This document shows positions 1 to 26,418 of a stretch of DNA of 34,479 nucleotides, piece by piece. Position numbers and translations under genes: made by a program. Each line of letters starts with the position of its first letter. Position 1 is the first letter of the stretch. The notes beneath the pieces are model-generated. The model searched no databases. It was not told the DNA's origin and saw only the letters and a program-made list of their open reading frames with translations. Source of the DNA: a virus (Duplodnaviria; Heunggongvirae; Uroviricota; Caudoviricetes); IMG/VR virus record IMGVR_UViG_2778261675_000005. One strand, written 5' to 3'.

Positions 1-1011
1 TTATAACGTCACTCCGCCTTTTAGAGGATTCAGCGCGACGGCATTTTGCAGGTAGTCAGGCGCAAGGTGCGCATAGGCCATCGTCTGCTGAATGCTCGCA
101 TGTCCCAGAATCTGTTGCAGTGCGATTATATTGCCCCCATTCATCATGAAATGGCTTGCGAATGTATGCCGCAGGATGTGGGTTGCCTGATTGGGTGGTA
201 TATCTGGCTTCACTCTGCGTAAAATCCCGCAAAACTTCTCATAATCAACTTTGAATAATTTAGCGCTGGCCTCCTCTTTAACTTTTTTCTCCAGTTCCTC
301 AGAAATCGGCACGGTTCGCTTTTTACCGTTTTTGGTTTTCAGGAAGGTAACCCTGCAATTTGTAATCTGTGCTGGTTTTAGCGTGGCAACTTCCGTCCAT
401 CTTCCTCCAGTGCTCAGACATAAAAGTGCGACAAGTAAGTCATCACCATCCAAAACATTTAACAGTTTTTCGATTTCTGCTTTTTCCAGGAACGTCATTT
501 CAGGGTTGGCCTCCGCCAGTGGCGGCAGTCCGTGAATTGGGTGTTGCCCGGAAAATTCATCCAATTGAATTAATTTTGTGAACATGCCGGATAATCGGTA
601 CATGTCACGGTTTATCGTTGCGGCACTGATACCATCACGTAGTCGCATGGAACGATAATCCATCAAAGCTCTTTTGCTCATCCGGCTCACTGGTATATCA
701 CCTATGCCGCTGATGGTTTTGAGCAGATGATTAAACTCTTTTGTTCCATGCTCGTGGTTTTGCCCGTGATATTTCCACCAGATGTTCAGCAACTCACTCA
801 AAGTTCTGCGATCTGCTCGCTGACCTGCCCATTCTTTCTGGCTGGCGTAGGCGATTGTGTATCGCTCAAATGCTACAGCCTCAGCTTTTCTTTCAAATTT
901 CCTGCGGATGCGTTTTCCGTCGCGACCGCGAGGTCTAATGTCCACTTCATAGCGTCCATCATCGAGCTTCTTAATTGACATAAGAAAGCCCTCTGACGCT
1001 GTATTCACCAT
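1..1011 (-). CDS. int: P2-type tyrosine integrase (complete; stop codon is the first 3 bases of the window)
   Basis: 336-aa ORF; C-terminal tyrosine-recombinase motifs (HTFASHF...LGH...TMAYAHL); sits at the prophage left end next to the C repressor as in P2. Confidence 0.9.
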   Translation of the reverse strand: MVNTASEGFLMSIKKLDDGRYEVDIRPRGRDGKRIRRKFERKAEAVAFERYTIAYASQKEWAGQRADRRTLSELLNIWWKYHGQNHEHGTKEFNHLLKTISGIGDIPVSRMSKRALMDYRSMRLRDGISAATINRDMYRLSGMFTKLIQLDEFSGQHPIHGLPPLAEANPEMTFLEKAEIEKLLNVLDGDDLLVALLCLSTGGRWTEVATLKPAQITNCRVTFLKTKNGKKRTVPISEELEKKVKEEASAKLFKVDYEKFCGILRRVKPDIPPNQATHILRHTFASHFMMNGGNIIALQQILGHASIQQTMAYAHLAPDYLQNAVALNPLKGGVTL

Positions 1012-1050: not shown

Positions 1051-1344
1051 TTAACCAGTCTGTTTTTCGGAGTGGTCTGATTCTGTTGGTTTTTGCCCAA
1101 TGTGTGCGAGAGCCGGCGCGATCTGACCAGCTTGTGGTGACGTATCACCAGTCATTAACCAGAGCGTATATTTTTTAAATAAAGGCGTATTTGTGACTCG
1201 CATAACGATGCTGAGACCAGGGTCTTTATGCCCACTTTCGTAATTTTTGACTGTTCCTAGAGCTATCCCGCTAATTTCGCTGAATTTCGCCTGTGTTAAG
1301 CCTTCTGCTTTCCTAATCGCTTTCAGTTTTTCGAATGTCTGCAT
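1051..1344 (-). CDS. C: P2 C-type immunity repressor (small HTH protein)
   Basis: 97 aa; divergent from cox; C-terminal stretch SGQIAPALAHIGQ resembles P2 C as I recall it; helix-turn-helix-like N-terminus. Confidence 0.8.
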   Translation of the reverse strand: MQTFEKLKAIRKAEGLTQAKFSEISGIALGTVKNYESGHKDPGLSIVMRVTNTPLFKKYTLWLMTGDTSPQAGQIAPALAHIGQKPTESDHSEKQTG

Positions 1345-3253: not shown

Positions 3254-3525
3254 GTATTCGTATTGAAATTGGCGAACGTTATGTCGTTACCAGTGACAGC
3301 TTTCAGTTTATTCTCCACGAGAAAAAGAGAGCGGAAAGCGGTAAAAACGCCGGTCAGGAATGGCTGGCGGTGGTTGGTTATTACCCGAAATTAAGCCAGC
3401 TCGTTTCCGGCCTGATGCATCACGATATTCTGACCGGAAGCGCAAAGTCTTTTGCTGATTTAAACGCGCAGGTTGAGCAACTCAGCAAGCGTTGTTCTGA
3501 GGCTTTTGGCTCATATGGCCGTTAA
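3250..3525 (+). CDS. hypothetical early protein (P2 orf83 position)
   Basis: 91-aa ORF, ATGA overlap upstream; 3' end overlaps the probable A start. Confidence 0.55.
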   Translation: MSIRIEIGERYVVTSDSFQFILHEKKRAESGKNAGQEWLAVVGYYPKLSQLVSGLMHHDILTGSAKSFADLNAQVEQLSKRCSEAFGSYGR

Positions 3526-5800
3526 AGCCTCCGGGCGTTTTGTCCCTCCGTCAGCATTTGCCGCAGGCACCGGTAAGGCGTTTACCGGTGCTTATGCATG
3601 GAACGCGCCACGCGAGGCTGTCGGGCGCGAAAGACCTCTTACACGTGACGAGATGCGTCAGGTGCAAGGTGTTTTATCCACGATTAACCGCCTGCCTTAC
3701 TTTTTGCGCTCGCTGTTTACTTCACGCTATGACTACATACGGCGCAATAAAAGCCCGGTGCACGGGTTTTATTTCCTCACATCCACTTTTCAGCGTCGTT
3801 TATGGCCGCGCATTGAGCGTGTGAATCAGCGCCATGAAATGAACACCGACGCGTCGTTGCTGTTTCTGGCAGAGCGTGACCACTATGCGCGCCTGCCTGG
3901 AATGAATGACAAGGAGCTGAAAAAGTTTGCCGCCCGTATTTCATCGCAGCTTTTCATGATGTATGAGGAACTCAGCGATGCCTGGGTGGATGCGCATGGC
4001 GAAAAAGAATCGCTGTTTACGGATGAGGCGCAGGCTCACCTCTATGGTCATGTTGCTGGCGCTGCACGTGCTTTCAATATTTCCCCTCTCTACTGGAAAA
4101 AATACCGTAAAGGGCAGATGACCACGAGGCAGGCATATTCTGCCATTGCCCGTCTGTTTAACGATGAGTGGTGGACTCATCAGCTTAAAGGCCAGCGTAT
4201 GCGCTGGCATGAAGCGTTACTGATAGCTGTCGGGGAGGTCAATAAAGACCGTTCTCCTTATGCCAGTAAACACGCCATTCGTGATGTGCGTGCGCGCCGC
4301 CAGGCAAATCTGGAATTTCTTAAATCGTGTGACCTTGAAAACAGGGAAACCGGCGAGCGCATCGACCTTATCAGTAAGGTGATGGGCAGTATTTCTAATC
4401 CTGAAATTCGCCGGATGGAGCTGATGAACACCATTGCCGGTATTGAGCGTTACGCCGCCGCAGAGGGTGATGTGGGGATGTTTATCACGCTGACCGCGCC
4501 GTCAAAGTATCACCCGACTCGTCAGGTCAGAAAAGGCGAAAGTAAAACTGTTCAGCTTAATCACGGCTGGAACGATGAGGCATTTAATCCAAAGGATGCG
4601 CAGCGTTATCTCTGCCGCATCTGGAGCCTGATGCGCACGGCATTCAAGGATAATGATTTACAGGTCTACGGTTTGCGTGTCGTCGAGCCACACCACGACG
4701 GAACGCCGCACTGGCATATGATGCTTTTTTGTAATCCACGCCAGCGTAACCAGATTATCGAAATCATGCGTCGCTATGCGCTCAAAGAGGATGGTGACGA
4801 AAGAGGAGCCGCGCGAAACCGTTTTCAGGCAAAGCACCTTAACCGGGGCGGTGCTGCGGGATATATCGCGAAATACATTTCAAAAAATATCGACGGCTAT
4901 GCACTGGATGGTCAGCTCGATAACGATACCGGTAAGCCGCTTAAAGATACTGCCGCGGCTGTTACCGCATGGGCGTCAACGTGGCGCATCCCGCAATTTA
5001 AAACGGTTGGACTGCCGACAATGGGGGCTTACCGTGAACTACGCAAATTGCCTCGCGGCGTCAGTATTGCTGATGAGTTTGACGAACGCGTCGAGGCTGC
5101 TCGCGCTGCCGCAGACAGTGGTGATTTTGCGTTGTATATCAGCGCGCAGGGTGGGGCAAATGTCCCGCGCGATTGTCAGACTGTCAGGGTTGCCCGTAGC
5201 CCGTCGAGTGACGTTAACGAGTACGAGGAAGAAGTCGAGAGAGTGGTCGGTATTTACGCGCCGCATCTCGGCGCGCGTCATATTCATATCACCAGAACGA
5301 CGGACTGGCGCATTGTGCCGAAAGTTCCGGTCGTTGAGCCTTTGACTTTAAAAAGCGGCATCGCCGCGCCTCGGAGTCCTGTCAATAACTGTGGAAAGCT
5401 CACCGGTGGTGATACTTCGTTACCGGCTCCCACACCTTCTGAACACGCCGCAGCAGTGCTTAATCTGGTTGATGACGGTGTTATCGAATGGAATGACACG
5501 GAGGTCGTGAGGGCGCTCAGGGGGGCATTAAAACACGACCTGAGAACACCAAATCGTCAGCAAAGAAACGGAAGCCCGTTAAAACCACATGAAATTGCAC
5601 CATCGGCCAGACTGGCCCGGTCGGAAAGAATGCAAATTACCCGTATCCGCGTTGACCTTGCTCAGAACGGTATCAGGCCGCAGCGATGGGAGCTTGAGGC
5701 GCTGGCGCGTGGAGCGACCGTAAATTATGACGGTAAAAAATTCATGTATCCGGTCGCTGATGAGTGGCCGGGATTCTCAAAAGTAATGGAGTGGACATGA
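3515..5800 (+). CDS. A: replication initiation endonuclease A (rolling-circle initiator)
   Basis: Large ORF in the P2 gpA position; I place the start at the ATG at 3515 (MAVKASGRF...) rather than the track's upstream ATG at 3473, which would overlap most of the previous ORF; conserved HxH-like block (PHWHMMLF) and catalytic-tyrosine region (GYIAKYISKN) typical of rolling-circle initiators. Confidence 0.85.
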   Translation: MAVKASGRFVPPSAFAAGTGKAFTGAYAWNAPREAVGRERPLTRDEMRQVQGVLSTINRLPYFLRSLFTSRYDYIRRNKSPVHGFYFLTSTFQRRLWPRIERVNQRHEMNTDASLLFLAERDHYARLPGMNDKELKKFAARISSQLFMMYEELSDAWVDAHGEKESLFTDEAQAHLYGHVAGAARAFNISPLYWKKYRKGQMTTRQAYSAIARLFNDEWWTHQLKGQRMRWHEALLIAVGEVNKDRSPYASKHAIRDVRARRQANLEFLKSCDLENRETGERIDLISKVMGSISNPEIRRMELMNTIAGIERYAAAEGDVGMFITLTAPSKYHPTRQVRKGESKTVQLNHGWNDEAFNPKDAQRYLCRIWSLMRTAFKDNDLQVYGLRVVEPHHDGTPHWHMMLFCNPRQRNQIIEIMRRYALKEDGDERGAARNRFQAKHLNRGGAAGYIAKYISKNIDGYALDGQLDNDTGKPLKDTAAAVTAWASTWRIPQFKTVGLPTMGAYRELRKLPRGVSIADEFDERVEAARAAADSGDFALYISAQGGANVPRDCQTVRVARSPSSDVNEYEEEVERVVGIYAPHLGARHIHITRTTDWRIVPKVPVVEPLTLKSGIAAPRSPVNNCGKLTGGDTSLPAPTPSEHAAAVLNLVDDGVIEWNDTEVVRALRGALKHDLRTPNRQQRNGSPLKPHEIAPSARLARSERMQITRIRVDLAQNGIRPQRWELEALARGATVNYDGKKFMYPVADEWPGFSKVMEWT

Positions 5801-6252
5801 TGGCAAAAATTCACGAGGTAAAGCTGCACGCAAAATATTTTGACCTTGTGCTAGAAGGAAAGAAACGCGCAGAGTTTCGGAAAAATGACCGTAATTATGA
5901 GCGCGGGGACACGTTGATTTTGCATGAATGGGGGCAGGGGGTGTATACGGGGCGAAAGGTTGAAGCCCGGATAACAGATGTTACTGACCTGTCAGACTGG
6001 CTGGAAGATTATGTCTTGCTAAGTATTGAGCTGCTTAATACAGGCGCATATGAGATTGTGAACTGGAAAGAACTTAGTGAGCGTGGTCTGGTATTCAGAA
6101 TTAATCATGAAATTATGCATCAGCTCGGCCTTGCTGTCATGTATGAACCAGAGACGGGGATGTCTGGCGGGGCAATGGTTGCCACGGATGGAGCATGGAA
6201 CTATTCGGACGAACAGATTGAGTGTGCAAAGCAAAACGGGTGGCTTGGATAA
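5797..6252 (+). CDS. DUF3850/ASCH-like domain protein
   Basis: ATG at 5797 overlaps A stop (ATGA); N-terminal ~60 aa (KIHEVKLHAKYFDLVLEGKKRAEFRKNDRNYERGDTLILHEW) matches the DUF3850 fold pattern as I recall it. Confidence 0.6.
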   Translation: MMAKIHEVKLHAKYFDLVLEGKKRAEFRKNDRNYERGDTLILHEWGQGVYTGRKVEARITDVTDLSDWLEDYVLLSIELLNTGAYEIVNWKELSERGLVFRINHEIMHQLGLAVMYEPETGMSGGAMVATDGAWNYSDEQIECAKQNGWLG

Positions 6253-6458
6253 TGCACAGAATACCAGGCGAGATACCGCAACATAACACTAAAAATATCA
6301 AGCTGATGGCTATTGTTCACCGTCTACAGCAGATTATGGTCAACGAAAATCTGACGCCTGACGAGCTGGTCGGGTGTGCCGAAATAGTCCGGGATAATTA
6401 CGGGCGGCTTAATTATATCCGTCAGTCCAGAGTTGCTCCACCGTCACGCAGACTATAG
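6252..6458 (+). CDS. small hypothetical protein
   Basis: 68-aa ORF starting at an ATG overlapping the upstream stop (TAATG); no recognisable domain. Confidence 0.35.
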   Translation: MHRIPGEIPQHNTKNIKLMAIVHRLQQIMVNENLTPDELVGCAEIVRDNYGRLNYIRQSRVAPPSRRL

Positions 6459-6658
6459 AAAACGCCGTCAGTCTTGAAACTTGTTTTCAGGGCTGGCGGG
6501 GTTGAACAACGAGCATCGCGAGGCGTTAGTGGTTTTCAGTATGTGTGTTATATGTGATAGGTTGCTTCCTAACGTATTTCATGTTTCTATGGAAAAAGAC
6601 TAAAAAACATGGTAAAGAAGCAAAAAACGCATAGAATGTTGTTAAATTTATTTAGATT

Positions 6659-7786
6659 ATGGTGTATGAAATGCCACTGACTGTCTTAGAACCATTCAAA
6701 ACACAGATGATTTCCCCAGATGAATTAATCTTGGATGCTAAAAACCCAAGACTTTATAACGGGAAAAGTTTTAATGACAATGCCGACCCGCACGAACTGG
6801 TTAAGGCTCTCTCTGATACAGCTGATTTGGAGGAGTTGATTAAATCCATATCAGAGAATGGATATATGTCAATTGAACCTTTAATTGTCATGAAAAAAGG
6901 TGCCAAATATGTTGTTTTAGAGGGAAATCGTCGTTTAGCAGCGATCAAATTACTTACTGAGCCGGGTTTGGCACAAAAGTGTCGTGTTGTTGTTCCTAAA
7001 AACTTGGACGCTCGTGTTATAGATAGTTTGAAAGAAGTGGCTGTATATCTAGTAAATGATGAGTCAGAGGCTCGTTCATTTATTGGATTTAAGCATGTAA
7101 ATGGTCCACATAAGTGGGATTCTTTTGCTAAAGCGCAATTTGCATATAAATGGTTTGTAAGTGAAAGGGCAAATGGGCTTACAATAGACGATATAACAAA
7201 AAAACTCGGTGATAGTAATAATACTGTGCGTTCTATTGTTAGTGCTATGTTTGTACTTGAACAAGCAAAAAATCAGGAGGTATATGATATTCACGCTGAT
7301 CGCATGTCTCCAAAATTTTCATTTTCACACTTATATACTGCATTAAATAGGTCTGAATATAAAGACTTCTTGGGGCTCGAGAGAGATTGGAATGTTACTC
7401 TTAAAGATAACCCTGTCCCATCGCAGAATATTGATAAACTTAAAGATGTTCTTACTGGTCTTTATGGTTATAAAAAAGATAAAAGAGCTTCTTTAATTTC
7501 TTCACAGAATCCGGATTTAAAATATTTTGGCGAGGTTTTGGCTAATGAGGCCTCATACGAAGCCTTTAAGTCTGGGGTTGAAAGTCTGTCTGAATTATAT
7601 AAACAGGCCGGAGATCCACTTCAACACATCAAGGATGCTTTTCTGGAGATAAACAAGCAGCTTGATACTATATCTTCTGTTCTTGATAGAACTGATTCGT
7701 TAGATGACACAACGAAGAACTACATCGAACAATTTAAGAAAAAAGTATTGAAGGTTCAATTTCAATTGCAGAGTATTGAGGAATAA
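6659..7786 (+). CDS. ParB/Srx N-terminal-domain protein (candidate defense component)
   Basis: 375 aa, AT-rich; N-terminal 100 aa follow the ParB N-domain pattern (ILDAKNPRL ... LEELIKSISENGYMSIEPLIV ... YVVLEGNRRLAAIKLL, i.e. the GxxRxxA arginine box); C-terminal ~270 aa unassigned with a coiled-coil-like tail; alternative start at 6671. Confidence 0.7.
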   Translation: MVYEMPLTVLEPFKTQMISPDELILDAKNPRLYNGKSFNDNADPHELVKALSDTADLEELIKSISENGYMSIEPLIVMKKGAKYVVLEGNRRLAAIKLLTEPGLAQKCRVVVPKNLDARVIDSLKEVAVYLVNDESEARSFIGFKHVNGPHKWDSFAKAQFAYKWFVSERANGLTIDDITKKLGDSNNTVRSIVSAMFVLEQAKNQEVYDIHADRMSPKFSFSHLYTALNRSEYKDFLGLERDWNVTLKDNPVPSQNIDKLKDVLTGLYGYKKDKRASLISSQNPDLKYFGEVLANEASYEAFKSGVESLSELYKQAGDPLQHIKDAFLEINKQLDTISSVLDRTDSLDDTTKNYIEQFKKKVLKVQFQLQSIEE

Positions 7787-7789
7787 TAA

Positions 7790-8809
7790 ATGCAGTTGTT
7801 ACCTTATCCGGAGAGTCATCATATTCAAGTTAAATTAGATTGGCTTGAATTATCATGTTTATCGAATATTTACTTTACTGTGCGTATTTCTGAGTTAAGA
7901 AATATTCTGGAGAATTTAGATTCGTTTACATCTTCTGATATAGGTGAGGAAGATGCTGAAGTAGAGAATGAAATACAACGATTACTGGAACAATATCAGC
8001 AAAGAAAAGATATTTTGGGTGAAAGTTATCCATTTGTTTTTAATGAAGAAACACTTTGTCTTGAGTTAATGGAAGGTACATTGGAACAACTGACAGTTGA
8101 CCAACATATCTATTTATACTGCTTGTATTTTTCTCATATGTCAGCATCACGATTATTTAGTGGTTTGGAAAGTCCTACAAACCAGCAACGGGATTTATTA
8201 CAGATTGCTGCAACTATTGCTTTGGCTGGTTATGTTCAAGGCCATAGTATTTCATTCGGTTGGCCAAGACCAGATAGCTCAAGATTTTATGATGCGTTAA
8301 CTAGGGCTATTGATTTAATAGGAGAGGGCAGAGTAAAATCTCTGGCTGATGTAAATCGCTATTTACAGTCTAGGCCTCATAAAGATGCTGGTATTGATGT
8401 TATTGCATGGAAGGATAATAATCCTCGCGATATGTTTCCTGGTAATAAGCTTATTTATTTTGCACAAGTTGCTAGCGGAAATGACTGGCGCTCTAAAGCA
8501 GTAAAAGAAGACATTGCTGTTATACAAAATCACTGGTTGTCGCAAAGAATATATAGAATAATTGACGCGATTGTTATTCCATTTGATTTCGAAAGTGATG
8601 ATGAATCTATAAAAAAAGATCATATCTCTTTGATAGCCGAGGAGTTTGGAGCAGTGTTGCATAGGCTACGGTTGCCAACTTGTTTTAAGAGGGGCTTAGA
8701 GCTTTTAGTTTCTAACCCTGAGTTGCTGATAGAAAGGGGAAATGAAATAAATAATATTTCACAATATGTAATATCAACAACCGCAACGTTACAACAAGAA
8801 GCGGCCTAA
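7790..8809 (+). CDS. hypothetical protein, possible Mrr/PD-(D/E)xK-like nuclease fold (candidate defense component)
   Basis: 339 aa, AT-rich, GAGGA RBS, start 4 nt after the upstream stop (operon); segment HKDAGIDVIAWKD...KLIYFAQVASG is reminiscent of the Mrr-type restriction-endonuclease core, but the assignment is tentative. Confidence 0.55.
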   Translation: MQLLPYPESHHIQVKLDWLELSCLSNIYFTVRISELRNILENLDSFTSSDIGEEDAEVENEIQRLLEQYQQRKDILGESYPFVFNEETLCLELMEGTLEQLTVDQHIYLYCLYFSHMSASRLFSGLESPTNQQRDLLQIAATIALAGYVQGHSISFGWPRPDSSRFYDALTRAIDLIGEGRVKSLADVNRYLQSRPHKDAGIDVIAWKDNNPRDMFPGNKLIYFAQVASGNDWRSKAVKEDIAVIQNHWLSQRIYRIIDAIVIPFDFESDDESIKKDHISLIAEEFGAVLHRLRLPTCFKRGLELLVSNPELLIERGNEINNISQYVISTTATLQQEAA

Positions 8810-8818
8810 TATTAGGCC
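8803..8818. terminator. perfect 16-bp palindrome GGCCTAATATTAGGCC, probable bidirectional terminator
   Basis: Palindrome read directly; contains the stop codons of both convergent genes; T-run follows on the + strand. Confidence 0.5.
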
Positions 8819-9819
8819 GTTTTAATTGCTTTTTTTTCAATCGGAATTTTACTTTCAGATTCCAATATGTCTACAGTAAATAGTGACTCTGGCATTCTTA
8901 ATCGAGAATCAGCGATCATGAGCTCTTTTCCAACTTTAGCCTGGTTCATCACATAGCTTATCTCTACCGCTCTTGTGCCATGTTTTGAATATAACTCATG
9001 CACTAATGGATGGTCATCATAAGAAATTAGCCAGCGGTTCGCATAACCGGCTATATATTCCTTAAGCTCTCGATGCTGTATGTCATCGAAACAAAAGTTT
9101 TTAGAATAAATGTTTCTGCCCTCTTTAACATAGGGAGGGTCTAGATAAACAAAGTCATTTTCGTAATTGTCTTTGTTATCAAATCGTTTTAAAAAATCAA
9201 TACAATGTTCATTATAAACAAATATAGATTCACGCATGCTCGCTATTTTTTCGAGCTTTTTAATAAGGGTGCTTACAGTGTATCTACAATCAATTTTATA
9301 TTTTCCAGATTGGTCTAAACCACCAATTGGCCCTGCGCTTAGTACTCCAGATCTATTTGTCCTATTTAAATAAAAAACACTGAATCCGTACTCGAGTTTA
9401 GTGTACTTAGTAGGATCAGTAATACTTGACTGATAAATTCTCTTTTGTTTATGCCATTCATCGATACATGGTATATTCTGATATACCATATCTAACAGAT
9501 TGTCGGTGTTGTTAATTAATTGATCCCAAAAACAAAATAAAGCATAGTTCTTGTCATTTAAGTGGATCTCTTTGACATATCCACCCAATAGCAGTGAAAG
9601 CGATGCACCAGCGCCGCCGCAAAATGGTTCAATAAACCGTGCGCCATTTAACTTATTATGCATGAGGAAAATAGCGAGAAATGAAGCAAGCTTGTCCTTG
9701 CCACCTGGATAGCGGAATGGTGAGCTGGCTCTAGGGATGTCGTGAACCCCAAACAACTTGCGTACTGATTTTTTGCTAAGTTGTTTTATTGCTTCATGTT
9801 CAAGGATTCTCTGATCCAT
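8812..9819 (-). CDS. Dam-like (D12-class) N6-adenine DNA methyltransferase
   Basis: 335 aa; SAM-binding motifs FRYPGGK and EPFCGGAG plus catalytic DPPY; AT-rich; convergent with the upstream operon. Confidence 0.85.
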   Translation of the reverse strand: MDQRILEHEAIKQLSKKSVRKLFGVHDIPRASSPFRYPGGKDKLASFLAIFLMHNKLNGARFIEPFCGGAGASLSLLLGGYVKEIHLNDKNYALFCFWDQLINNTDNLLDMVYQNIPCIDEWHKQKRIYQSSITDPTKYTKLEYGFSVFYLNRTNRSGVLSAGPIGGLDQSGKYKIDCRYTVSTLIKKLEKIASMRESIFVYNEHCIDFLKRFDNKDNYENDFVYLDPPYVKEGRNIYSKNFCFDDIQHRELKEYIAGYANRWLISYDDHPLVHELYSKHGTRAVEISYVMNQAKVGKELMIADSRLRMPESLFTVDILESESKIPIEKKAIKTA

Positions 9820-10017
9820 GTGCCACCGTTACTATTATGAAAAATATTTCTATTATCGCATGCGTCATTGCTTCCTGCAATCAGGGTAGCGCATGTATCT
9901 ATAGCGTGCGTGGATTTGCATTTATGTTCTTTGGTCTCTAACTCTTTTGTATGGTAATCCCCAAGGGGGTTTGATTACTTAATTCAACCGCATTAAAACC
10001 GGCTCATGAAGCGGGCG

Positions 10018-10036
10018 GGCGAGGCGGGGAAAGCAC
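10018..10036. other. putative cos cohesive-end site
   Basis: GC-rich 19-mer GGCGAGGCGGGGAAAGCAC in the intergenic region just beyond Q, matching my recollection of the P2 cohesive end; not verified. Confidence 0.5.
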
Positions 10037-10184
10037 TGCGCGCTGGCGGTGGTGCTGATTTTATTTTTTCAGCGTCTGAGCGCGTCGTGATGGCGTTTAG
10101 TCGGCCTGCCGGGGCGTTGGTGTGTCTGCGGGGTGTTTTGTACAGTGGCGAACGTGTGAGGGCGTGATGACGGGGTGTAAAAAA

Positions 10185-10200
10185 GCCGCCCGCAGGCGGC
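10185..10200 (-). terminator. rho-independent terminator of the P-Q operon
   Basis: GCCGCC-CGCA-GGCGGC hairpin followed on the - strand by a T6 run, 5 bp beyond the Q stop. Confidence 0.6.
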
Positions 10201-10205
10201 GATGT

Positions 10206-11240
10206 TCAGCCGTTGTCAGTGTCCAGTGAGTAGTTTTTAAATCGGATGACCTCCTGACCGAGCCAGCCGTTTATCTCGCGGATCCTGTCCTGTAACGGGA
10301 TAAGCTCATTGCGGACAAAGACCTTTGCTACTTTCTCAATATCACCCAGCGACCCGACGTTCTCCGGCTTGCCGCCCATCAACTGAAAGGGGATGCGGTG
10401 CGCGTCCAGCAGGTCAGCGGCGCTGGCTTTTTTGATATTAAAAAAATCGTCCTTCGTTGCCACTTCACTGAGCGGGATAATTTTAATGCCGTCAGCTTTC
10501 CCCTGCGGGGCATAGAGAAACAGGTTTTTAAAGTTGTTGCGGCCTTTCGACTTCACCATGTTTTCGCGAAGCATTTCGATATCGTTGCGATCCTGCACGG
10601 CATCAGTGACGTACATGATATATCCGGCATGAGCGCCGTTTTCGTAATACTTGCGGCGGAACAGCGTGGCCGACTCATTCAGCCAGGCAGAGTTAAGGGC
10701 GCTGAGATATTCCGGCAGACCGTACAGCTCCTGATTAATATCCGGCTCCAGCAGGTGAAACACGGAGCCGGGCGCGAAAGGTGTCGGCTCGTTGAAGGAC
10801 GGCACCCACCAGTAAACATCCTCCTCCACGCCACGGCGGGTATATTTTGCCGGTGAGGTTTCCAGTCTGATGACCTTACCGGTGGTGCTGTAACGCTTTT
10901 CCAGAAACGCATTGCCGAACACCAGAAAATCCAGCACAAAGCGGCTGAAATCCTGCTGGGAAAGCCACGGATGCGGGATAAATGTCGAGGCCAGAATATT
11001 GCGTTTGACGTAAATCGGTGAGCTGTGATGCACGGCAGCACGCAGACTTTTTGCCAGCCCGGTAAAGCTGACCGGCGGCTCATACCATCTGCCGTTACTG
11101 ATGCATTCGACGTAATCCAGAATGTCACGGCGGTCGAGTACCGGCACCGGCTCGCCAAAGGTGAATGCCTCCATTTTCGGGGCGCTGGCGGTCATTGTTT
11201 TTGCCGCAGGTTGCGGTGTTTTCCCTTTTTTCTTGCTCAT
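10206..11240 (-). CDS. Q: portal protein
   Basis: 344 aa, same length and position as P2 gpQ; start overlaps P stop (ATGA). Confidence 0.9.
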   Translation of the reverse strand: MSKKKGKTPQPAAKTMTASAPKMEAFTFGEPVPVLDRRDILDYVECISNGRWYEPPVSFTGLAKSLRAAVHHSSPIYVKRNILASTFIPHPWLSQQDFSRFVLDFLVFGNAFLEKRYSTTGKVIRLETSPAKYTRRGVEEDVYWWVPSFNEPTPFAPGSVFHLLEPDINQELYGLPEYLSALNSAWLNESATLFRRKYYENGAHAGYIMYVTDAVQDRNDIEMLRENMVKSKGRNNFKNLFLYAPQGKADGIKIIPLSEVATKDDFFNIKKASAADLLDAHRIPFQLMGGKPENVGSLGDIEKVAKVFVRNELIPLQDRIREINGWLGQEVIRFKNYSLDTDNG

Positions 11241-13012
11241 CAGTAAAACTCCAGAATGGTGGATGTCAGCGGGGTGCTGATACCGGCGGTGAGTGGCTCA
11301 TTTAACAGGGCGTGCATGGTCGCCCAGGCGAGGTCGGCGTGGCTGGCTTCCTCGCTGCGGCTGGCCTCATAGGTGGCGCTGCGTCCGCTGCTGGTCATGG
11401 TCTTGCGGATAGCCATAAACGAGCTGGTGATGTCGGTGGCGCTGACGTCATATTCCAGACAGCCACGGCGGATAACGTCTTTGGCCTTGAGCACCATTGC
11501 GGTTTTCATTTCCGGCGTGTAGCGGATATCGCGCGCGGCGGGGTAGAACGAGCGCACGAGCTGGAACACGCCGACACCGAGGCCGGTGGCATCAATACCG
11601 ATGTATTCGACGTTGTATTTTTCGGTGAGTTTGCGGATGGATTCCGCCTGGGTGGCAAAGTCCATGCCTTTCCACTGGTGACGCTCAAGTATTCTGAATT
11701 TGCCACCGGCCACCACCGGCGGTGCCAGCACCACGCATCCGGCACTGTCGCCACGGTGTGACGGGTCGTAACCAATCCATACCGGGCGGGAGCCGAACGG
11801 ATTCGCGGCAAACGGCGCATAGTCTTCCCATTCTTCCAGCGTGTCGACCATGCAGCGTTGCAGCTCCTCGAACGGGAACACCGACGCCTTGTCGTCAACA
11901 AATTCACACATGAACAGGTTTTTAAAATCGTCGGCGCTGTTTTCACGTTTGAGCTGCTCAATGTCGAACAGTGTGCAGCCACCTTTCAGGGCATCTTCAA
12001 TGGTGACAATCTGCCGCCACTGGCCGTCCGCACAGAGAAGCCCTCCGGCAAGGGCGTTATGACTGACGTCGATTTCCACGCGTTCGGCGGCGCTGGCGCG
12101 TCCCCGGTTGAACAGTTCACCTGACCAGAACGGGTAGGCGTCGTGCGCCAGCGTGGACGGGGTGGAGAAATAGGTCGAGCGCAGGTGACTCTGTGAGGCC
12201 ATACCTGATGCCACCTTACGCAGTACCTGAAAATTCGGGATCCAGAAAATCTCATCGACGTACAGGTCGCCGTTATGGCTCTGCGCGGTGTTGGAGTTGG
12301 TGCCGAGAAAAATCAGTTTTGCGCCGTTATTGCCCAGGACAATCGGGTCACCGGTCAGGTCAACGTCCACCAGACGGGCAAAGGCGATGATGTATTCGCG
12401 GAACACATACGCCTGCGTTTTACTGGCCGACAGAAAAATCTGGTTATGACCGGTTTTCAGGGCGCGCAGCAGTGCCTCGCGGGAAAAATAAAACGTCGCG
12501 CCAATCTGGCGGGATTTCAGGATATCGCGGATGCGGTGCTCAAGCCCGGCGCGATACCAGTGCAACTGATAGTCGAAAGACTGCTCAAAGAAAATCTGCT
12601 CCAGCTTTTCGATGGCTTCGTCACTGAAAAAATTCTTTTTCGGTTTGCGACGCCCGCCTTTGTTGCGGTTAGCGACGTTCGGATTAAGGTCTGCCTCGTT
12701 GCCGGTCTGGCTGTAGCGGTTTACCCGTGCCAGTCGTTCAATCTGGCGTCCCAGCAGGTCAATTTCCTTGAAGTCACCGCCGGTTTTCTGCGGTTTGATG
12801 ATGAGCTGGGTCAGCCGCGCTTCCAGGCTCATTTCGACACGGCTGATGGGGGCAACGCTGTCCCAGCCGTCGCGCTGTTTCCAGCTCTGCACCGTCGGGC
12901 GTTTCATCTGCAACATGGCGGCAATCTGCGGCACGGAAAACCCCTGCCAGTACAGCAGCGCCGCCTGACGACGCGGGTCGTGTAAAAGAGTGGTGTCTGT
13001 GGTGATGGTCAT
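11240..13012 (-). CDS. P: terminase large (ATPase) subunit
   Basis: 590 aa from the ATG at 13012, preceded by GAGG at suitable spacing (the track's 600-aa start has no RBS); P2 gpP length and position. Confidence 0.9.
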   Translation of the reverse strand: MTITTDTTLLHDPRRQAALLYWQGFSVPQIAAMLQMKRPTVQSWKQRDGWDSVAPISRVEMSLEARLTQLIIKPQKTGGDFKEIDLLGRQIERLARVNRYSQTGNEADLNPNVANRNKGGRRKPKKNFFSDEAIEKLEQIFFEQSFDYQLHWYRAGLEHRIRDILKSRQIGATFYFSREALLRALKTGHNQIFLSASKTQAYVFREYIIAFARLVDVDLTGDPIVLGNNGAKLIFLGTNSNTAQSHNGDLYVDEIFWIPNFQVLRKVASGMASQSHLRSTYFSTPSTLAHDAYPFWSGELFNRGRASAAERVEIDVSHNALAGGLLCADGQWRQIVTIEDALKGGCTLFDIEQLKRENSADDFKNLFMCEFVDDKASVFPFEELQRCMVDTLEEWEDYAPFAANPFGSRPVWIGYDPSHRGDSAGCVVLAPPVVAGGKFRILERHQWKGMDFATQAESIRKLTEKYNVEYIGIDATGLGVGVFQLVRSFYPAARDIRYTPEMKTAMVLKAKDVIRRGCLEYDVSATDITSSFMAIRKTMTSSGRSATYEASRSEEASHADLAWATMHALLNEPLTAGISTPLTSTILEFY

Positions 13013-13042
13013 GAATACCTCGCCGTGATGAATACACGGCAA

Positions 13043-19457: not shown

Positions 19458-20243
19458 TTATGAGTGATTTTTATTTGATGCTTTGTATTCTAAAACCTTC
19501 TTATTGGCGTAAAAGAATTTTGTATATGACAGGAATATAACCAGACCTAAAGTGAAATAGACGAGGGATAGTATTAATAATGCTTTTTTGTGACTGTTAT
19601 TGTCTTTAATCTCCTGGCTTAACCATTCGGAGTCCTCCTCGTTTAGCTGTAAGAGCTTATTGCAGGCGATCTCAGGAAGTGTGTCTTTTATAAATACGTT
19701 TTGCAGTCTCTTGCAATCGGCAAGGCTATAAGTTTTATTAAATTCAACTGCTTTATTTTTGAAGGATAAAAGAACTTTGTCACTATAAACATAGTACATC
19801 ATGTTTTTATATGGTATGCCTATGGCATCCCTTACTATAACGGATTGTTCGTTGTGTATGTAACATGCGAGGAGAATGTAAAAAATACTGGCCAGAATTA
19901 CAATTATTGTTTTAATTATGTGTGGTGGTTTTGTTATGTCACCCCAGATGCGAGTAAGGAAAAAATACGATGTTTTTAGTTTTCCATCAATCAGTCCCTG
20001 CTGTATCATTCTCACATTTTCAATGCCTGATACATTGATTCCGTTAATTATTTTAAATAGTTGAATGTCGCGCCACTCGCGGTCAAGTCTTTTTAATTTT
20101 TTGTCTGAATATCCAAAATTGAAATAATGTGCAATAAGCCTCATAAGGTTACTTTTACCAAAGCTAAAAAATGCTAATACTGCAAAGCTACAAAGGAAAA
20201 AAACGATTAGCCCCCACACATTAGTCACATTATAGCTGACCAT
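19458..20243 (-). CDS. multi-pass membrane protein, cargo gene at the P2 orf30 position
   Basis: 261 aa, very AT-rich, opposite strand to the flanking late genes; predicted transmembrane helices near residues 9-27, 112-131 and 220-240; GGAGAG RBS before the ATG. Confidence 0.7.
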   Translation of the reverse strand: MVSYNVTNVWGLIVFFLCSFAVLAFFSFGKSNLMRLIAHYFNFGYSDKKLKRLDREWRDIQLFKIINGINVSGIENVRMIQQGLIDGKLKTSYFFLTRIWGDITKPPHIIKTIIVILASIFYILLACYIHNEQSVIVRDAIGIPYKNMMYYVYSDKVLLSFKNKAVEFNKTYSLADCKRLQNVFIKDTLPEIACNKLLQLNEEDSEWLSQEIKDNNSHKKALLILSLVYFTLGLVIFLSYTKFFYANKKVLEYKASNKNHS

Positions 20244-20326
20244 TACGCTCTCCTTGAATGTTGTCTGGTAGTTCTACAAATGAATCCAGATAGCATAACT
20301 TTTATATATTGTGCAATCTCACATGC

Positions 20327-20962
20327 ATGAACACTCTCGCAAATATTCAGGAACTCGCGCGCGCACTGCGCAACATGATTCGCACCGGCATTATCGTCGA
20401 AACCGACCTTAACGCCGGTCGCTGCCGTGTGCAGACCGGCGGCATGTGCACCGACTGGCTTCAGTGGCTGACCCATCGTGCCGGACGTTCACGCACATGG
20501 TGGGCACCTTCCGTGGGGGAACAGGTGCTGATTCTGGCCGTGGGCGGTGAACTCGACACGGCGTTCGTTCTGCCGGGGATTTATTCCGGCGATAACCCTC
20601 CGCCGTCTGCGTCGGCGGATGCCCTGCACATACGTTTCCCTGACGGGGCGGTGATTGAATATGAACCCGAAACCAGTGCACTCACGGTAAGCGGAATTAA
20701 AACGGCCAGCGTGACGGCTTCTGATTCTGTTACTGCCACGGTGCCGGTGGTCATGGTGAAAGCATCAACCCGCGTCACCCTGGACACCCCGGAGGTGGTC
20801 TGCACCAACAGGCTGATTACCGGCACGCTGGAAGTGCAGAAGGGCGGGACGATGCGCGGCAACATTGAACACACCGGCGGTGAACTCTCATCAAACGGTA
20901 AGGTACTGCATACCCATAAACATCCCGGCGACAGCGGCGGCACAACCGGGAGTCCTTTATGA
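20327..20962 (+). CDS. V: baseplate spike protein
   Basis: 211 aa from the ATG at 20327, P2 gpV length and position. Confidence 0.85.
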   Translation: MNTLANIQELARALRNMIRTGIIVETDLNAGRCRVQTGGMCTDWLQWLTHRAGRSRTWWAPSVGEQVLILAVGGELDTAFVLPGIYSGDNPPPSASADALHIRFPDGAVIEYEPETSALTVSGIKTASVTASDSVTATVPVVMVKASTRVTLDTPEVVCTNRLITGTLEVQKGGTMRGNIEHTGGELSSNGKVLHTHKHPGDSGGTTGSPL

Positions 20963-24775: not shown

Positions 24776-25303
24776 ATGATGCACTTAAAGAACATAAAAG
24801 CGGGTAACGCTAAAACACTGGAACAGTATGAGTTAACAAAGAAACACGGAGTTATCTGGCTTTACTCTGAGGACGGAAAAAACTGGTATGAGGAAGTGAA
24901 GAACTTTCAGCCAGACACAATAAAGATTGTTTACGATGAAAATAATATTATTGTCGCTATCACCAGAGATGCTTCAACGCTTAATCCTGAAGGTTTTAGC
25001 GTTGTTGAGGTTCCTGATATTACCTCCAACCGACGTGCTGACGACTCAGGTAAATGGATGTTTAAGGATGGTGCCGTGATTAAGCGGATTTATACGGCAG
25101 ACGAACAGCAGAAACTGGCGGAATTACATAAGGCAGCTTTGCTTTCCGAAGCTGAATCCGTGATTTTGCCGCTGGAGCGCGCGGTCAGGCTGAATATGGC
25201 AACAGATGAGGAGCGTAGTCGACTGGAGGCATGGGAACGCTATAGTGTTCTGGTCAGTCGTGTGGATCCTGCAAATCCTGAATGGCCGGAAATGCCGCAA
25301 TAA
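24776..25303 (+). CDS. G: tail fiber assembly chaperone
   Basis: 175 aa immediately after H, AT-rich like the H C-terminus; P2 gpG length. Confidence 0.8.
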
Positions 25304-25518: not shown

Positions 25519-26418
25519 ATGAGTGGTATTCGTATAACTCAGGCTATTGATAACAATCAGATTTTAGTAAATGTAAATACTTTTAATTATAGTGTTAATC
25601 CCTATCCACTCAAATGTCCTGACCCAAATTGCTCTGCTCATTTGGTGTATGTCAAAAGCCATATTCGTCGGAGTTTTAATAAAACCTTGCATATCCCCGC
25701 CTTCTTTAGACTGGAAAAAAATTTCACGCATGACAAATTATGCCAGTATGGAACTTCAGGATTGAATACAATTTATGCAAGTGATTCCAGTCATGATATC
25801 AGCCGTGCGCTTGCCACAGGTAATAATATATTCCGTATACATATACTCGATGAAGATGATATCTCTAAATTAAGCAGAAAAGCTGCAGCTATGCAGGCAA
25901 ATCCACCTTCTGATACTACAGACCGCGTTTATGTCAAGAGAGGTCGGAAAGCCCCTTATGTGAAGAACATGGATAGCTTACGGGAGATCTATGAATATGG
26001 AAAAGCTCACCCCAACAAGAGAAACAGCATAAAAATTGTTACTGGAACAAGTACTGTAACGTGGTCTGATTTTTTCTATGAAACAACGCAGTTAGAACGA
26101 TTGTCAACTTACCTCCAGAAAGTAAAAATAGCTCAGGTTGCTGTAATTATGAAAGTGCATGTGGCGAGAATCCCTATGGCGAAATTTAATTATCGACACT
26201 TCATTGAAGGTTCGCCAATGAGGATAAAAGGGGGCTTTAATATATATCCTACGATTCAATTAGGAAATGTTACTCCAAAATTATTTCCGTTGAGTAGCAT
26301 TGTCATGGTACTCGGTAAATTTACTATTCCAACAAATAGAAAAATGATAATGGATCCAATATTTGAGCGTGAAGTCAGAACCATAGTTTCTAGTGAAGAG
26401 CAAGTGCTAATTCTTTGA
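25519..26418 (+). CDS. hypothetical 299-aa protein, cargo gene at the P2 Z/fun position
   Basis: AT-rich ORF between G and FI with its own GGAGG RBS and ~215 bp AT-rich upstream region; no motif I can assign. Confidence 0.65.
   Translation: MSGIRITQAIDNNQILVNVNTFNYSVNPYPLKCPDPNCSAHLVYVKSHIRRSFNKTLHIPAFFRLEKNFTHDKLCQYGTSGLNTIYASDSSHDISRALATGNNIFRIHILDEDDISKLSRKAAAMQANPPSDTTDRVYVKRGRKAPYVKNMDSLREIYEYGKAHPNKRNSIKIVTGTSTVTWSDFFYETTQLERLSTYLQKVKIAQVAVIMKVHVARIPMAKFNYRHFIEGSPMRIKGGFNIYPTIQLGNVTPKLFPLSSIVMVLGKFTIPTNRKMIMDPIFEREVRTIVSSEEQVLIL

Follow-up and report, generated by a model that had tools for sequence, protein, structure and literature searches.

In this P2-like prophage, the AT-rich DNA between replication gene A and cos is a genuine, widely conserved cassette that resembles restriction-modification (R-M) systems. 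It consists of a ParB/KorB-like gene (orf1), a partner gene (orf2) and a DNA methylase gene, and sequence comparison identifies it as a sister form of the anti-phage system PD-λ-5: the methylases of both belong to one clade, and their ParB N-domains are of one kind.

The cargo island and its genes

Within the window, i.e., the whole 34,479-nucleotide stretch of DNA that was analyzed, the GC content was 0.33-0.37 across positions 6501-9500 versus 0.51-0.58 on both flanks. Backbone homology to E. coli P2-like prophages carrying other cargo ended at ~6422-6530 and restarted at ~9981-9987. The homology breaks thus bracket ~6531-9980, close to the 6459-9960 given in the preliminary description, which had reported about 3.5 kb of AT-rich DNA between gene A and cos. 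The cargo is ~3.45 kb long and is filled by three long open reading frames, and our calls agree with the earlier account of orf1 and orf2 in tandem and a third, convergent gene, as well as of the hotspot location (Table 1). Among 5426 complete E. coli genomes, 20 carried the island, as two alleles with 100% and 83% DNA identity.

Table 1. Coordinates of the island, its genes and its surroundings in the window.
Feature	Position	Strand	Remarks
P2 gpA-like replication endonuclease	3473-5800		Left-hand context of the island
AT-rich cargo island in the P2 A-to-cos hotspot	6531..9980	.	Borders approximate; from GC content and backbone homology
orf1, ParB/KorB-like protein	6659-7786	+	375 aa; RefSeq start 6671, 371 aa
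orf2, unannotated partner	7790-8809	+	339 aa; starts 3 nt past the orf1 stop
Palindromic hairpin over both convergent stop codons	8798..8823	.	Candidate bidirectional terminator, by consensus scan only
D12-class (Dam-like) N6-adenine DNA methyltransferase	8812-9819	-	335 aa; DPPY motif; PD-Lambda-5_B family
P2 cos site, right edge of the hotspot	10018..10036	.	GGCGAGGCGGGGAAAGCAC, read directly; we take it to be the P2 cohesive end
Portal and terminase genes	10206-13042		Context right of cos

The N-terminal part of orf1 is a predicted ParB/Srx NTP-binding domain (~aa 15-135) with an invariant NPR at residues 29-31 and an invariant E88-G-N-R-R92. The middle of the protein (~aa 155-240) is an HTH-type DNA-binding region, and the C-terminal part (~aa 255-375) is helical. 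Both a ParB N-domain with a GxRR Box II and an HTH domain are present, and the fold is similar to those of ParB and KorB. No HEPN match was found in Pfam. The ParB/Srx domain, which had been proposed earlier for the first gene of the operon, was recovered as a weak match to Pfam ParB_N (E = 5e-4; 20.5 bits, below the gathering threshold of 26.3). This subthreshold score counts against a restriction reading of the island, as does a Box II that reads GNRR rather than GERR and makes NTP hydrolysis by orf1 no more than putative.

The partner protein, orf2, had zero matches in Pfam, NCBIfam, PADLOC and the sequences of the PDB, and all 42 members of its family had none in Pfam at E values up to 5; its sequence matches were limited to PHROG families without known function. 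Structurally, its N-terminal part is winged-helix-like and its C-terminal part (~aa 130-339) has a predicted restriction-endonuclease-like fold, an assignment with support at the fold level only. Foldseek found nothing significant in the PDB. The invariant residues of the family are D199, D203, Q226-x-A228-S229, W233 and K236, among which the acidic/polar cluster D199, D203, Q226, S229 and K236 is kept unchanged across phyla. The "possible nuclease core" of the preliminary description stands at the fold level only and is weaker than had been implied.

The third gene encodes the Dam-like N6-adenine methyltransferase anticipated from the sequence, as seen from its match to PF02086 (E = 2e-22) and its DPPY motif. 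It is convergent with orf2, with stop codons 2 nt apart. In the consensus scan, the hairpin at this junction reads on the + strand as a stem of 11 pairs with a T-run after it, and on the - strand as a stem of 7 pairs. A promoter scan returned as many promoter-like sites as expected from shuffled sequence, and operator- or parS-like repeats sought in both intergenic regions were just short ones at chance level.

Conservation of the three-gene arrangement

We compared 66 loci from at least eight phyla, 64 of which could be evaluated for the gene upstream of orf2 and 63 for the methylase. In every one of the 64, the gene directly upstream of the orf2 homolog was an orf1 homolog of the same orientation, and the two often overlapped. 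The orf1-orf2 pairing is obligate, and the loci that show it include ones from Proteobacteria, Acidobacteria, Verrucomicrobia, Spirochaetes, Chloroflexi, Actinobacteria, Cyanobacteria and Myxococcota. The orf2 family itself comprises ~2,500 clusters at 50% identity, spread over many phyla.

A DNA methylase adjoined the pair in 61 of the 63 evaluable loci, in prophage and non-prophage contexts. It was of the D12 family (PF02086) in most loci and of the N6_N4 family (PF01555) in 10, and it was either co-directional, often overlapping the orf2 stop, or convergent. Loci of the two kinds were interleaved on the orf2 tree. The presence of two unrelated methylase families in one slot is an R-M signature, since it indicates that a methylase is needed, whichever its family. 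The preliminary description had left open whether the island is a modification-protected restriction-like system, and the linkage to two unrelated families, inside and outside prophages, favors this alternative.

The cassette is also independent of prophages. It occurs as an isolated three-gene insert between housekeeping genes at three loci (L001, L004 and L005), and in a Vibrio P2-like prophage it occupies another site, between int and cI. Joint decay is seen at two further loci, L037 and L034, where orf2 is broken into fragments and so is the methylase.

The L011/L012 lineage retains the orf1-orf2 pair, every invariant residue included, but no methylase adjoins it, which sits poorly with a strict R-M logic, barring a methylase that works in trans. 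Another locus, L031, retains a methylase remnant. We considered that the nuclease might be inactivated in methylase-less loci, as R-M logic would lead one to expect, and rejected this, as the orf2 residues of L012 and L031 are not mutated.

Relation to PD-λ-5 and other known systems

PD-λ-5 is a validated system that gives broad anti-phage protection (Vassallo 2022, PMC9519451). In ECOR7 it consists of a ParB/HEPN protein (RCQ13837.1) and a methyltransferase (RCQ13838.1); its cloning required an mrr-deleted host, and it was termed a compacted "RM+Abi" system (PMC9519451). The island methylase is a full-length match to the PADLOC profile PD-Lambda-5_B (PDLC04018; E = 4.6e-94, aa 31-315, profile positions 4-281 of 291) and is 44% identical to that of Marinobacter phage AS1, which adjoins a PD-Lambda-5_A homolog. 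The N-domain of orf1 is of the PD-λ-5 subtype with the LEGNRR motif, but it covers only positions 5-161 of the 466-position PD-Lambda-5_A profile (157 positions), and by BLASTP its identity to full-length PD-Lambda-5_A (31% over 156 aa) ends at residue 161. Both forms are carried by P2-like prophages or other phages. They are physically joined in a cyanobacterial locus, L039, where orf1, orf2, a full-length PD-Lambda-5_A (E = 4e-135; L039:2542-3909, profile positions 6-464 of 466) and PD-Lambda-5_B stand in one row.

The differences concern the effector. PD-λ-5 has two genes, whereas the island has three, the middle one being orf2. PD-Lambda-5_A is a protein of ~450-500 aa with a fused C-terminal HEPN effector; the island lacks HEPN, and past residue ~165 orf1 continues with KorB-like HTH and helical regions. 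Its putative effector is instead the separate protein with the restriction-endonuclease-like fold, which is absent from PADLOC. A distant BLASTN search of E. coli genomes with the methylase gene, seeking canonical PD-λ-5 loci, returned the same 20 islands only. Our literature search found the three-gene form described nowhere and no published mechanism of PD-λ-5. The module had been called undescribed: this holds for the three-gene form, but not for the methylase, a full-length PD-Lambda-5_B, or for the orf1 N-domain, which is of the PD-Lambda-5_A type. Confident matches of both operon proteins to a named system, which would have spoken against the preliminary description, were not obtained: orf1 covers PD-Lambda-5_A only in part, and orf2 has no Pfam, NCBIfam or PADLOC match.

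The cassette also resembles Type II R-M systems with wHTH and PD-(D/E)xK domains (e.g., SdaI). These too are compact mobile cassettes, and here a solitary D12 or N6_N4 methylase adjoins a ~340-aa protein, with the DPPY-motif methylase of the island lying beside orf2 as the candidate R gene. The best structural matches of orf2 are Type II restriction enzymes. Unlike those systems, however, orf2 always has a conserved ~375-aa ParB-type NTPase-like protein directly upstream, it lacks the (D/E)xK lysine, and no Type II family profile matches it. As in Type III Res/Mod, McrBC and GmrSD/SspE, a nuclease is predicted to be paired with a nucleotide-binding, DNA-handling module, but the three island proteins contain no helicase, AAA+ or P-loop domain of the kind found in Type I/III systems and McrBC. 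In GmrSD, BrxU and SspE, a ParB-superfamily N-domain serves as sensor or switch (PMC12065111, PMC12373910). We rejected a GmrSD/DUF262 Type IV assignment because Pfam detected no DUF262, HNH or DUF1524, the motif is EGNRR and not DGQQR, and the island has its own methylase; unlike Type IV enzymes, this implies attack on unmodified DNA. Finally, orf1 aligned with positions 59-354 of PDC-M38A (E = 8e-21), through the ParB N-domain and middle region, from the PADLOC candidate system PDC-M38. The PDC-M38A profile has 715 positions, roughly double the length of orf1, and its C-terminal half finds no match in orf2. No mention of PDC-M38, an unvalidated candidate, was found in our literature search.

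Proposed mechanism and alternatives

Taken together, these data suggest that the three genes of the island probably make up a restriction system with methylation as its protection, which the prophage carries as cargo to defend the lysogen. The Dam-like methylase would mark target sites in host and prophage DNA. With a gap of only 3 nt, orf1 and orf2 would be translated together and form one restriction complex, in which orf1 would recognize or load onto unmethylated DNA, with nucleotide binding as the switch, and orf2 would supply DNA cleavage. The ParB N-domain that is coupled to a fused HEPN in PD-λ-5 would here be coupled to a separate DNA nuclease. What the comparisons show is the gene layout, the folds, the conserved motifs, the obligate pairing, the linkage to a methylase and the PD-λ-5 homology; from these we infer the unmethylated DNA target, the catalysis by orf2, the NTP binding or hydrolysis by orf1 and the complex between the two proteins.

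More tentatively, and with rather less confidence than in restriction as such, we suggest that the cassette may represent a distinct class of nucleotide-dependent restriction enzyme, in which a ParB/KorB-type NTP-gated clamp replaces the helicase of Type I/III enzymes or the AAA+ GTPase of McrBC. After loading at an unmethylated site, such a clamp would slide along the DNA and license a partner PD-(D/E)xK-like nuclease, and PD-λ-5 would combine the same sensor with an RNase. The ParB fold has so far been understood chiefly in chromosome segregation. If the restriction reading is correct, the cassette would be a compact model for a ParB-fold nucleotide switch in self/non-self DNA discrimination, and the orf2 family and its obligate ParB-like partner would gain a function. 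The survey label "PD-λ-5" would then take in effectors built in two ways, as a fused RNase or as a DNA nuclease of its own, with a single methylase clade and a single sensor domain common to both. The cassette would also be a barrier to phage therapy and transformation in carrier strains of E. coli, Salmonella, Klebsiella, Serratia and Vibrio.

An abortive-infection-like role, of the kind suggested for the HEPN arm of PD-λ-5, is unlikely, though it survives best among the alternatives. Here, orf1-orf2 would sense infection, e.g., through unmethylated replicating DNA, and degrade DNA indiscriminately, killing or arresting the cell instead of cutting the invader selectively, with the methylase setting no more than the self/non-self threshold. 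The ParB N-domain of the homologous PD-Lambda-5_A is fused to HEPN, which is typical of Abi effectors, and the survival of the L011/L012 lineage with no adjoining methylase is easier to understand if the nuclease is latent until triggered. However, the 61/63 methylase linkage, which includes the clean chromosomal three-gene inserts, fits classical R-M; the coexistence of the pair with a HEPN protein in L039 suggests separate jobs for the two arms; and no infection-sensing domain is evident.

Slightly less likely again is a reversal of roles, in which orf1 cuts or nicks DNA through its ParB/Srx domain, an activity reported for some ParB-superfamily proteins, and orf2 is a catalytically dead DNA-recognition or adaptor subunit. 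It is difficult to see why a purely structural subunit would keep D199, D203, Q226, S229 and K236 invariant, as orf2 does, and ParB N-domains are mostly NTP switches rather than nucleases (PMC12704722).

The other alternative raised in the preliminary description, a ParB-domain defense operon plus a separate methyltransferase, is improbable. It would make the island two unrelated cargos, an orphan phage methylase with an anti-restriction or epigenetic role and a methylase-independent operon. The methylase of the window is indeed convergent and has its own promoter region, orphan Dam-like methylases are frequent in phages, and PADLOC also scores this one as a generic Type II or orphan MTase. 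Yet a methylase adjoins the pair in 61/63 loci, non-phage chromosomal ones among them; it often runs in the same direction and overlaps the orf2 stop, and its place is taken by members of two unrelated families.

Least probable is that orf1 is a ParB-type partition or silencing protein of the prophage with incidental neighbors, as its ParB/KorB-like fold and the NCBI label "ParB/RepB/Spo0J family partition protein" on some alleles might suggest; we rejected this because orf1 scored 27.7 bits against the cutoff of 58.45 of the curated partition model TIGR00180 and no ParA-like gene lies between gpA and portal (5764-10206 of the window), while P2 integrates and does not need a partition system, and orf1 keeps its fixed pairing with orf2 and the methylase across phyla without partition logic.

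Prophage setting and extent of the cargo

The window is a P2-like prophage. The preliminary description had placed an AT-rich three-gene island between replication gene A and cos, and the GC trough, the ORFs and the limits of homology all bore this out. GC content was 0.33-0.37 across 6501-9500 compared to 0.51-0.58 in both flanks, and the match to E. coli P2-like prophages with other cargo was lost at ~6422-6530 and came back at ~9981-9987. From the points where backbone homology stops and restarts, the cargo measures ~3.45 kb. The three-gene feature is real and not a chance ORF cluster. The cos-portal flank was found in 2163 of 5426 complete E. coli genomes and the island cargo in only 20, as two alleles with 100% and ~83% DNA identity.

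Because the ASCH/DUF3850 gene is common to P2-like prophages with other cargo, we counted it as prophage backbone. A 2025 survey (PMC12704722) reports DUF3850 among the domains frequently fused to ParB-CTPase folds of phages; the window protein is unfused and encoded two genes upstream of the ParB-like gene.

A second AT-rich patch (GC 0.36-0.38) holds one ORF directly 3′ of the tail-fibre assembly gene. In P2 this is the Z/fun position, named as the second defence hotspot of that phage by Vassallo 2022 (PMC9519451). A third (GC ~0.35), within the morphogenesis region, holds two abutting ORFs, and none of these three ORFs had a Pfam or PADLOC match. In position, the third patch resembles P2 orf30, which lies between the genes for tail completion and for the baseplate, and it is possibly further cargo.

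Features of the prophage and its cargo (positions in the window)
Feature	Position	Strand	Remark
Integrase	1-1011	-	
HTH repressor	1051-1344	-	
gpA-like replication endonuclease	3473-5800		
ASCH/DUF3850 + DUF7415 protein	5764-6252	+	just 3′ of gpA
orf1	6659-7786	+	375 aa; ORF in GC trough
orf2	7790-8809	+	339 aa; start 3 nt past orf1 stop
Palindromic hairpin	8798-8823		perfect core, GGCCTAATATTAGGCC; overlaps both convergent stop codons
Methylase	8812-9819	-	335 aa; convergent; stop 2 nt from orf2 stop
P2 cos sequence	10018-10036		
Portal and terminase genes	10206-13042		
ORF, third AT-rich patch	19458-20243	-	261 aa
ORF, third AT-rich patch	20243-20476	-	77 aa
Tail-fibre assembly gene	24776-25303		Caudo_TAP
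ORF, second AT-rich patch	25519-26418	+	299 aa

Proteins encoded by the cargo

The N-terminal ~150 residues of orf1, the ParB/KorB-like protein, matched the PADLOC PD-Lambda-5_A (ParB/HEPN) models (best E 7e-23), over profile positions 5-161 of 466 only. Residues 55-362 matched the first half of the candidate PADLOC model PDC-M38A, and the Pfam ParB_N and TIGR00180 scores were both under the curated cutoffs. An AlphaFold model built from 40 homologues (pLDDT 87), the invariant residues of the homologue alignment, including N29-P-R31 and E88-G-N-R-R92, and the alignment of the latter with GERRLRA, the phosphate-binding Box II motif in H. pylori ParB, together point to the predicted layout of a whole ParB/KorB-type protein, with an NTP-binding domain, an HTH region and C-terminal helices. 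A ParB/HEPN fusion was rejected in view of this layout.

Its partner, orf2, gave zero matches in Pfam, NCBIfam, PADLOC and PDB sequences. Scanning the whole set of 42 family members at a permissive threshold did not change this, and PADLOC v2 has no model for orf2. The structure model is confident (pLDDT 93, pTM 0.91), and its N-terminal part matches winged-helix proteins. A Foldseek search of the PDB with orf2 gave no significant match. The pattern K-D199-x-G-I-D203-V-I-A-W ... Q226-V-A-S-G-x-x-W233-x-x-K236 was unchanged from enterobacteria to actinobacteria and cyanobacteria. It resembles the D...(E/Q)xK motifs of Mrr-type enzymes, yet an invariant alanine stands at the place of the motif lysine, and we therefore call orf2 restriction-endonuclease-like, with putative catalysis. 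An exhaustive profile search found 2474 family clusters at 50% identity, 309 of them at E up to 1e-30; the best 150 were all stand-alone proteins of ~330-365 aa.

The product of the third gene is an N6-adenine methyltransferase of the D12 class (PF02086, E 2e-22) that carries a DPPY motif. It matched PADLOC PD-Lambda-5_B across its full length (E 4.6e-94). Its nearest phage relative (44% identity), in Marinobacter phage AS1, adjoins a 486-aa PD-Lambda-5_A homologue. In Vibrio phage 10N.286.54.E5_PE002 (4381-7837 of that locus), a methylase with 39% identity to the window enzyme converges on the gene for a 459-aa protein that is related to neither orf1 nor PD-Lambda-5_A, and P-loop NTPase and HerA-like genes follow; this row may be another effector set with the same methylase clade.

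Distribution of the cassette and its relation to PD-λ-5

We compared 66 loci with an orf2 relative (6 from homologue look-ups, 35 from a one-genome-per-species scan, 24 viral contigs and the window). An orf1 homologue lay directly upstream on the same strand in 64/64 loci having upstream sequence, in hosts from the alpha-, beta- and gamma-Proteobacteria, Acidobacteria, Verrucomicrobia, Spirochaetes, Chloroflexi, Actinobacteria, Cyanobacteria and Myxococcota. A DNA methylase adjoined the pair in 61 of the 63 evaluable loci, D12 in most and an unrelated N6_N4 enzyme (PF01555) in ten; the two kinds were intermixed on the orf2 tree, and the methylase was co-directional in some loci and convergent in others. 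Several cassettes were bare three-gene inserts flanked by housekeeping genes, and a Vibrio campbellii P2-like prophage carried the same three genes at another site, between int and cI. Two loci had both orf2 and methylase fragmented. One lineage of Methylococcaceae MAGs (L011/L012) kept an intact orf1-orf2 with all invariant residues and had lost the methylase; homology to the sister locus L040 ended exactly at the orf2 end, where an amidohydrolase gene followed. Strict R-M logic leaves this pair unexplained. The family as a whole is widely distributed and has no annotation; the architecture is unusual and open to testing.

PD-λ-5 from ECOR7, a validated system of two genes (a ParB/HEPN protein and a methyltransferase), protected broadly over the tested phage panel, and its cloning needed an mrr-deleted host; it was presented there as a compacted "RM+Abi" system (Vassallo et al., PMC9519451). 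The window methylase and the orf1 ParB N-domain are homologous to its components, and the gene pair of phage AS1 and the cyanobacterial row given below further tie the window to this family. Since the window cassette has three genes and lacks a HEPN domain, it is not PD-λ-5 as defined, nor is it a plain Type II system, because it has an obligate ParB-like partner and a non-canonical motif. An uncultured cyanobacterium (CASBQM010000290.1, 269-4823 of the locus) carried the row orf1, orf2, PD-Lambda-5_A (full-length, 455 aa, E 4e-135) and PD-Lambda-5_B, unique among the 66 loci. This looks like an uncompacted "RM+Abi" arrangement and a candidate source of both compact forms; if it is ancestral-type, PD-λ-5 would be the Abi arm plus methylase and the window cassette the RM arm plus methylase. 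Our literature search found no published description of the three-gene form, which is known from sequence and predicted structure, its closest relative PD-λ-5 being already validated. It is best filed within an R-M-like, PD-λ-5-related group.

A putative restriction complex and its alternatives

The anatomy, folds, motifs, co-occurrence and homology to a validated system are probably best read as a methylase working with a restriction complex. The methylase would mark self DNA, and orf1 and orf2 would form a complex directed against unmarked DNA. In this complex orf1 would bind DNA as an NTP-gated sensor or switch, and orf2 would be the nuclease. We write "NTP" without choosing a nucleotide, since the preference of ParB-fold proteins is not readable from sequence (PMC12704722). 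That the restriction enzyme is driven by a ParB-type clamp is a tentative suggestion. An Abi-like nuclease that cuts indiscriminately is unlikely, and an exchange of roles, in which the ParB domain would be the nuclease and orf2 an adaptor, also seems improbable. We consider it very doubtful that the genes are two unrelated cargos, and a partition function can be set aside as highly implausible. The hairpin between the putative restriction operon and the methylase gene could be a bidirectional terminator or a protein-binding site.
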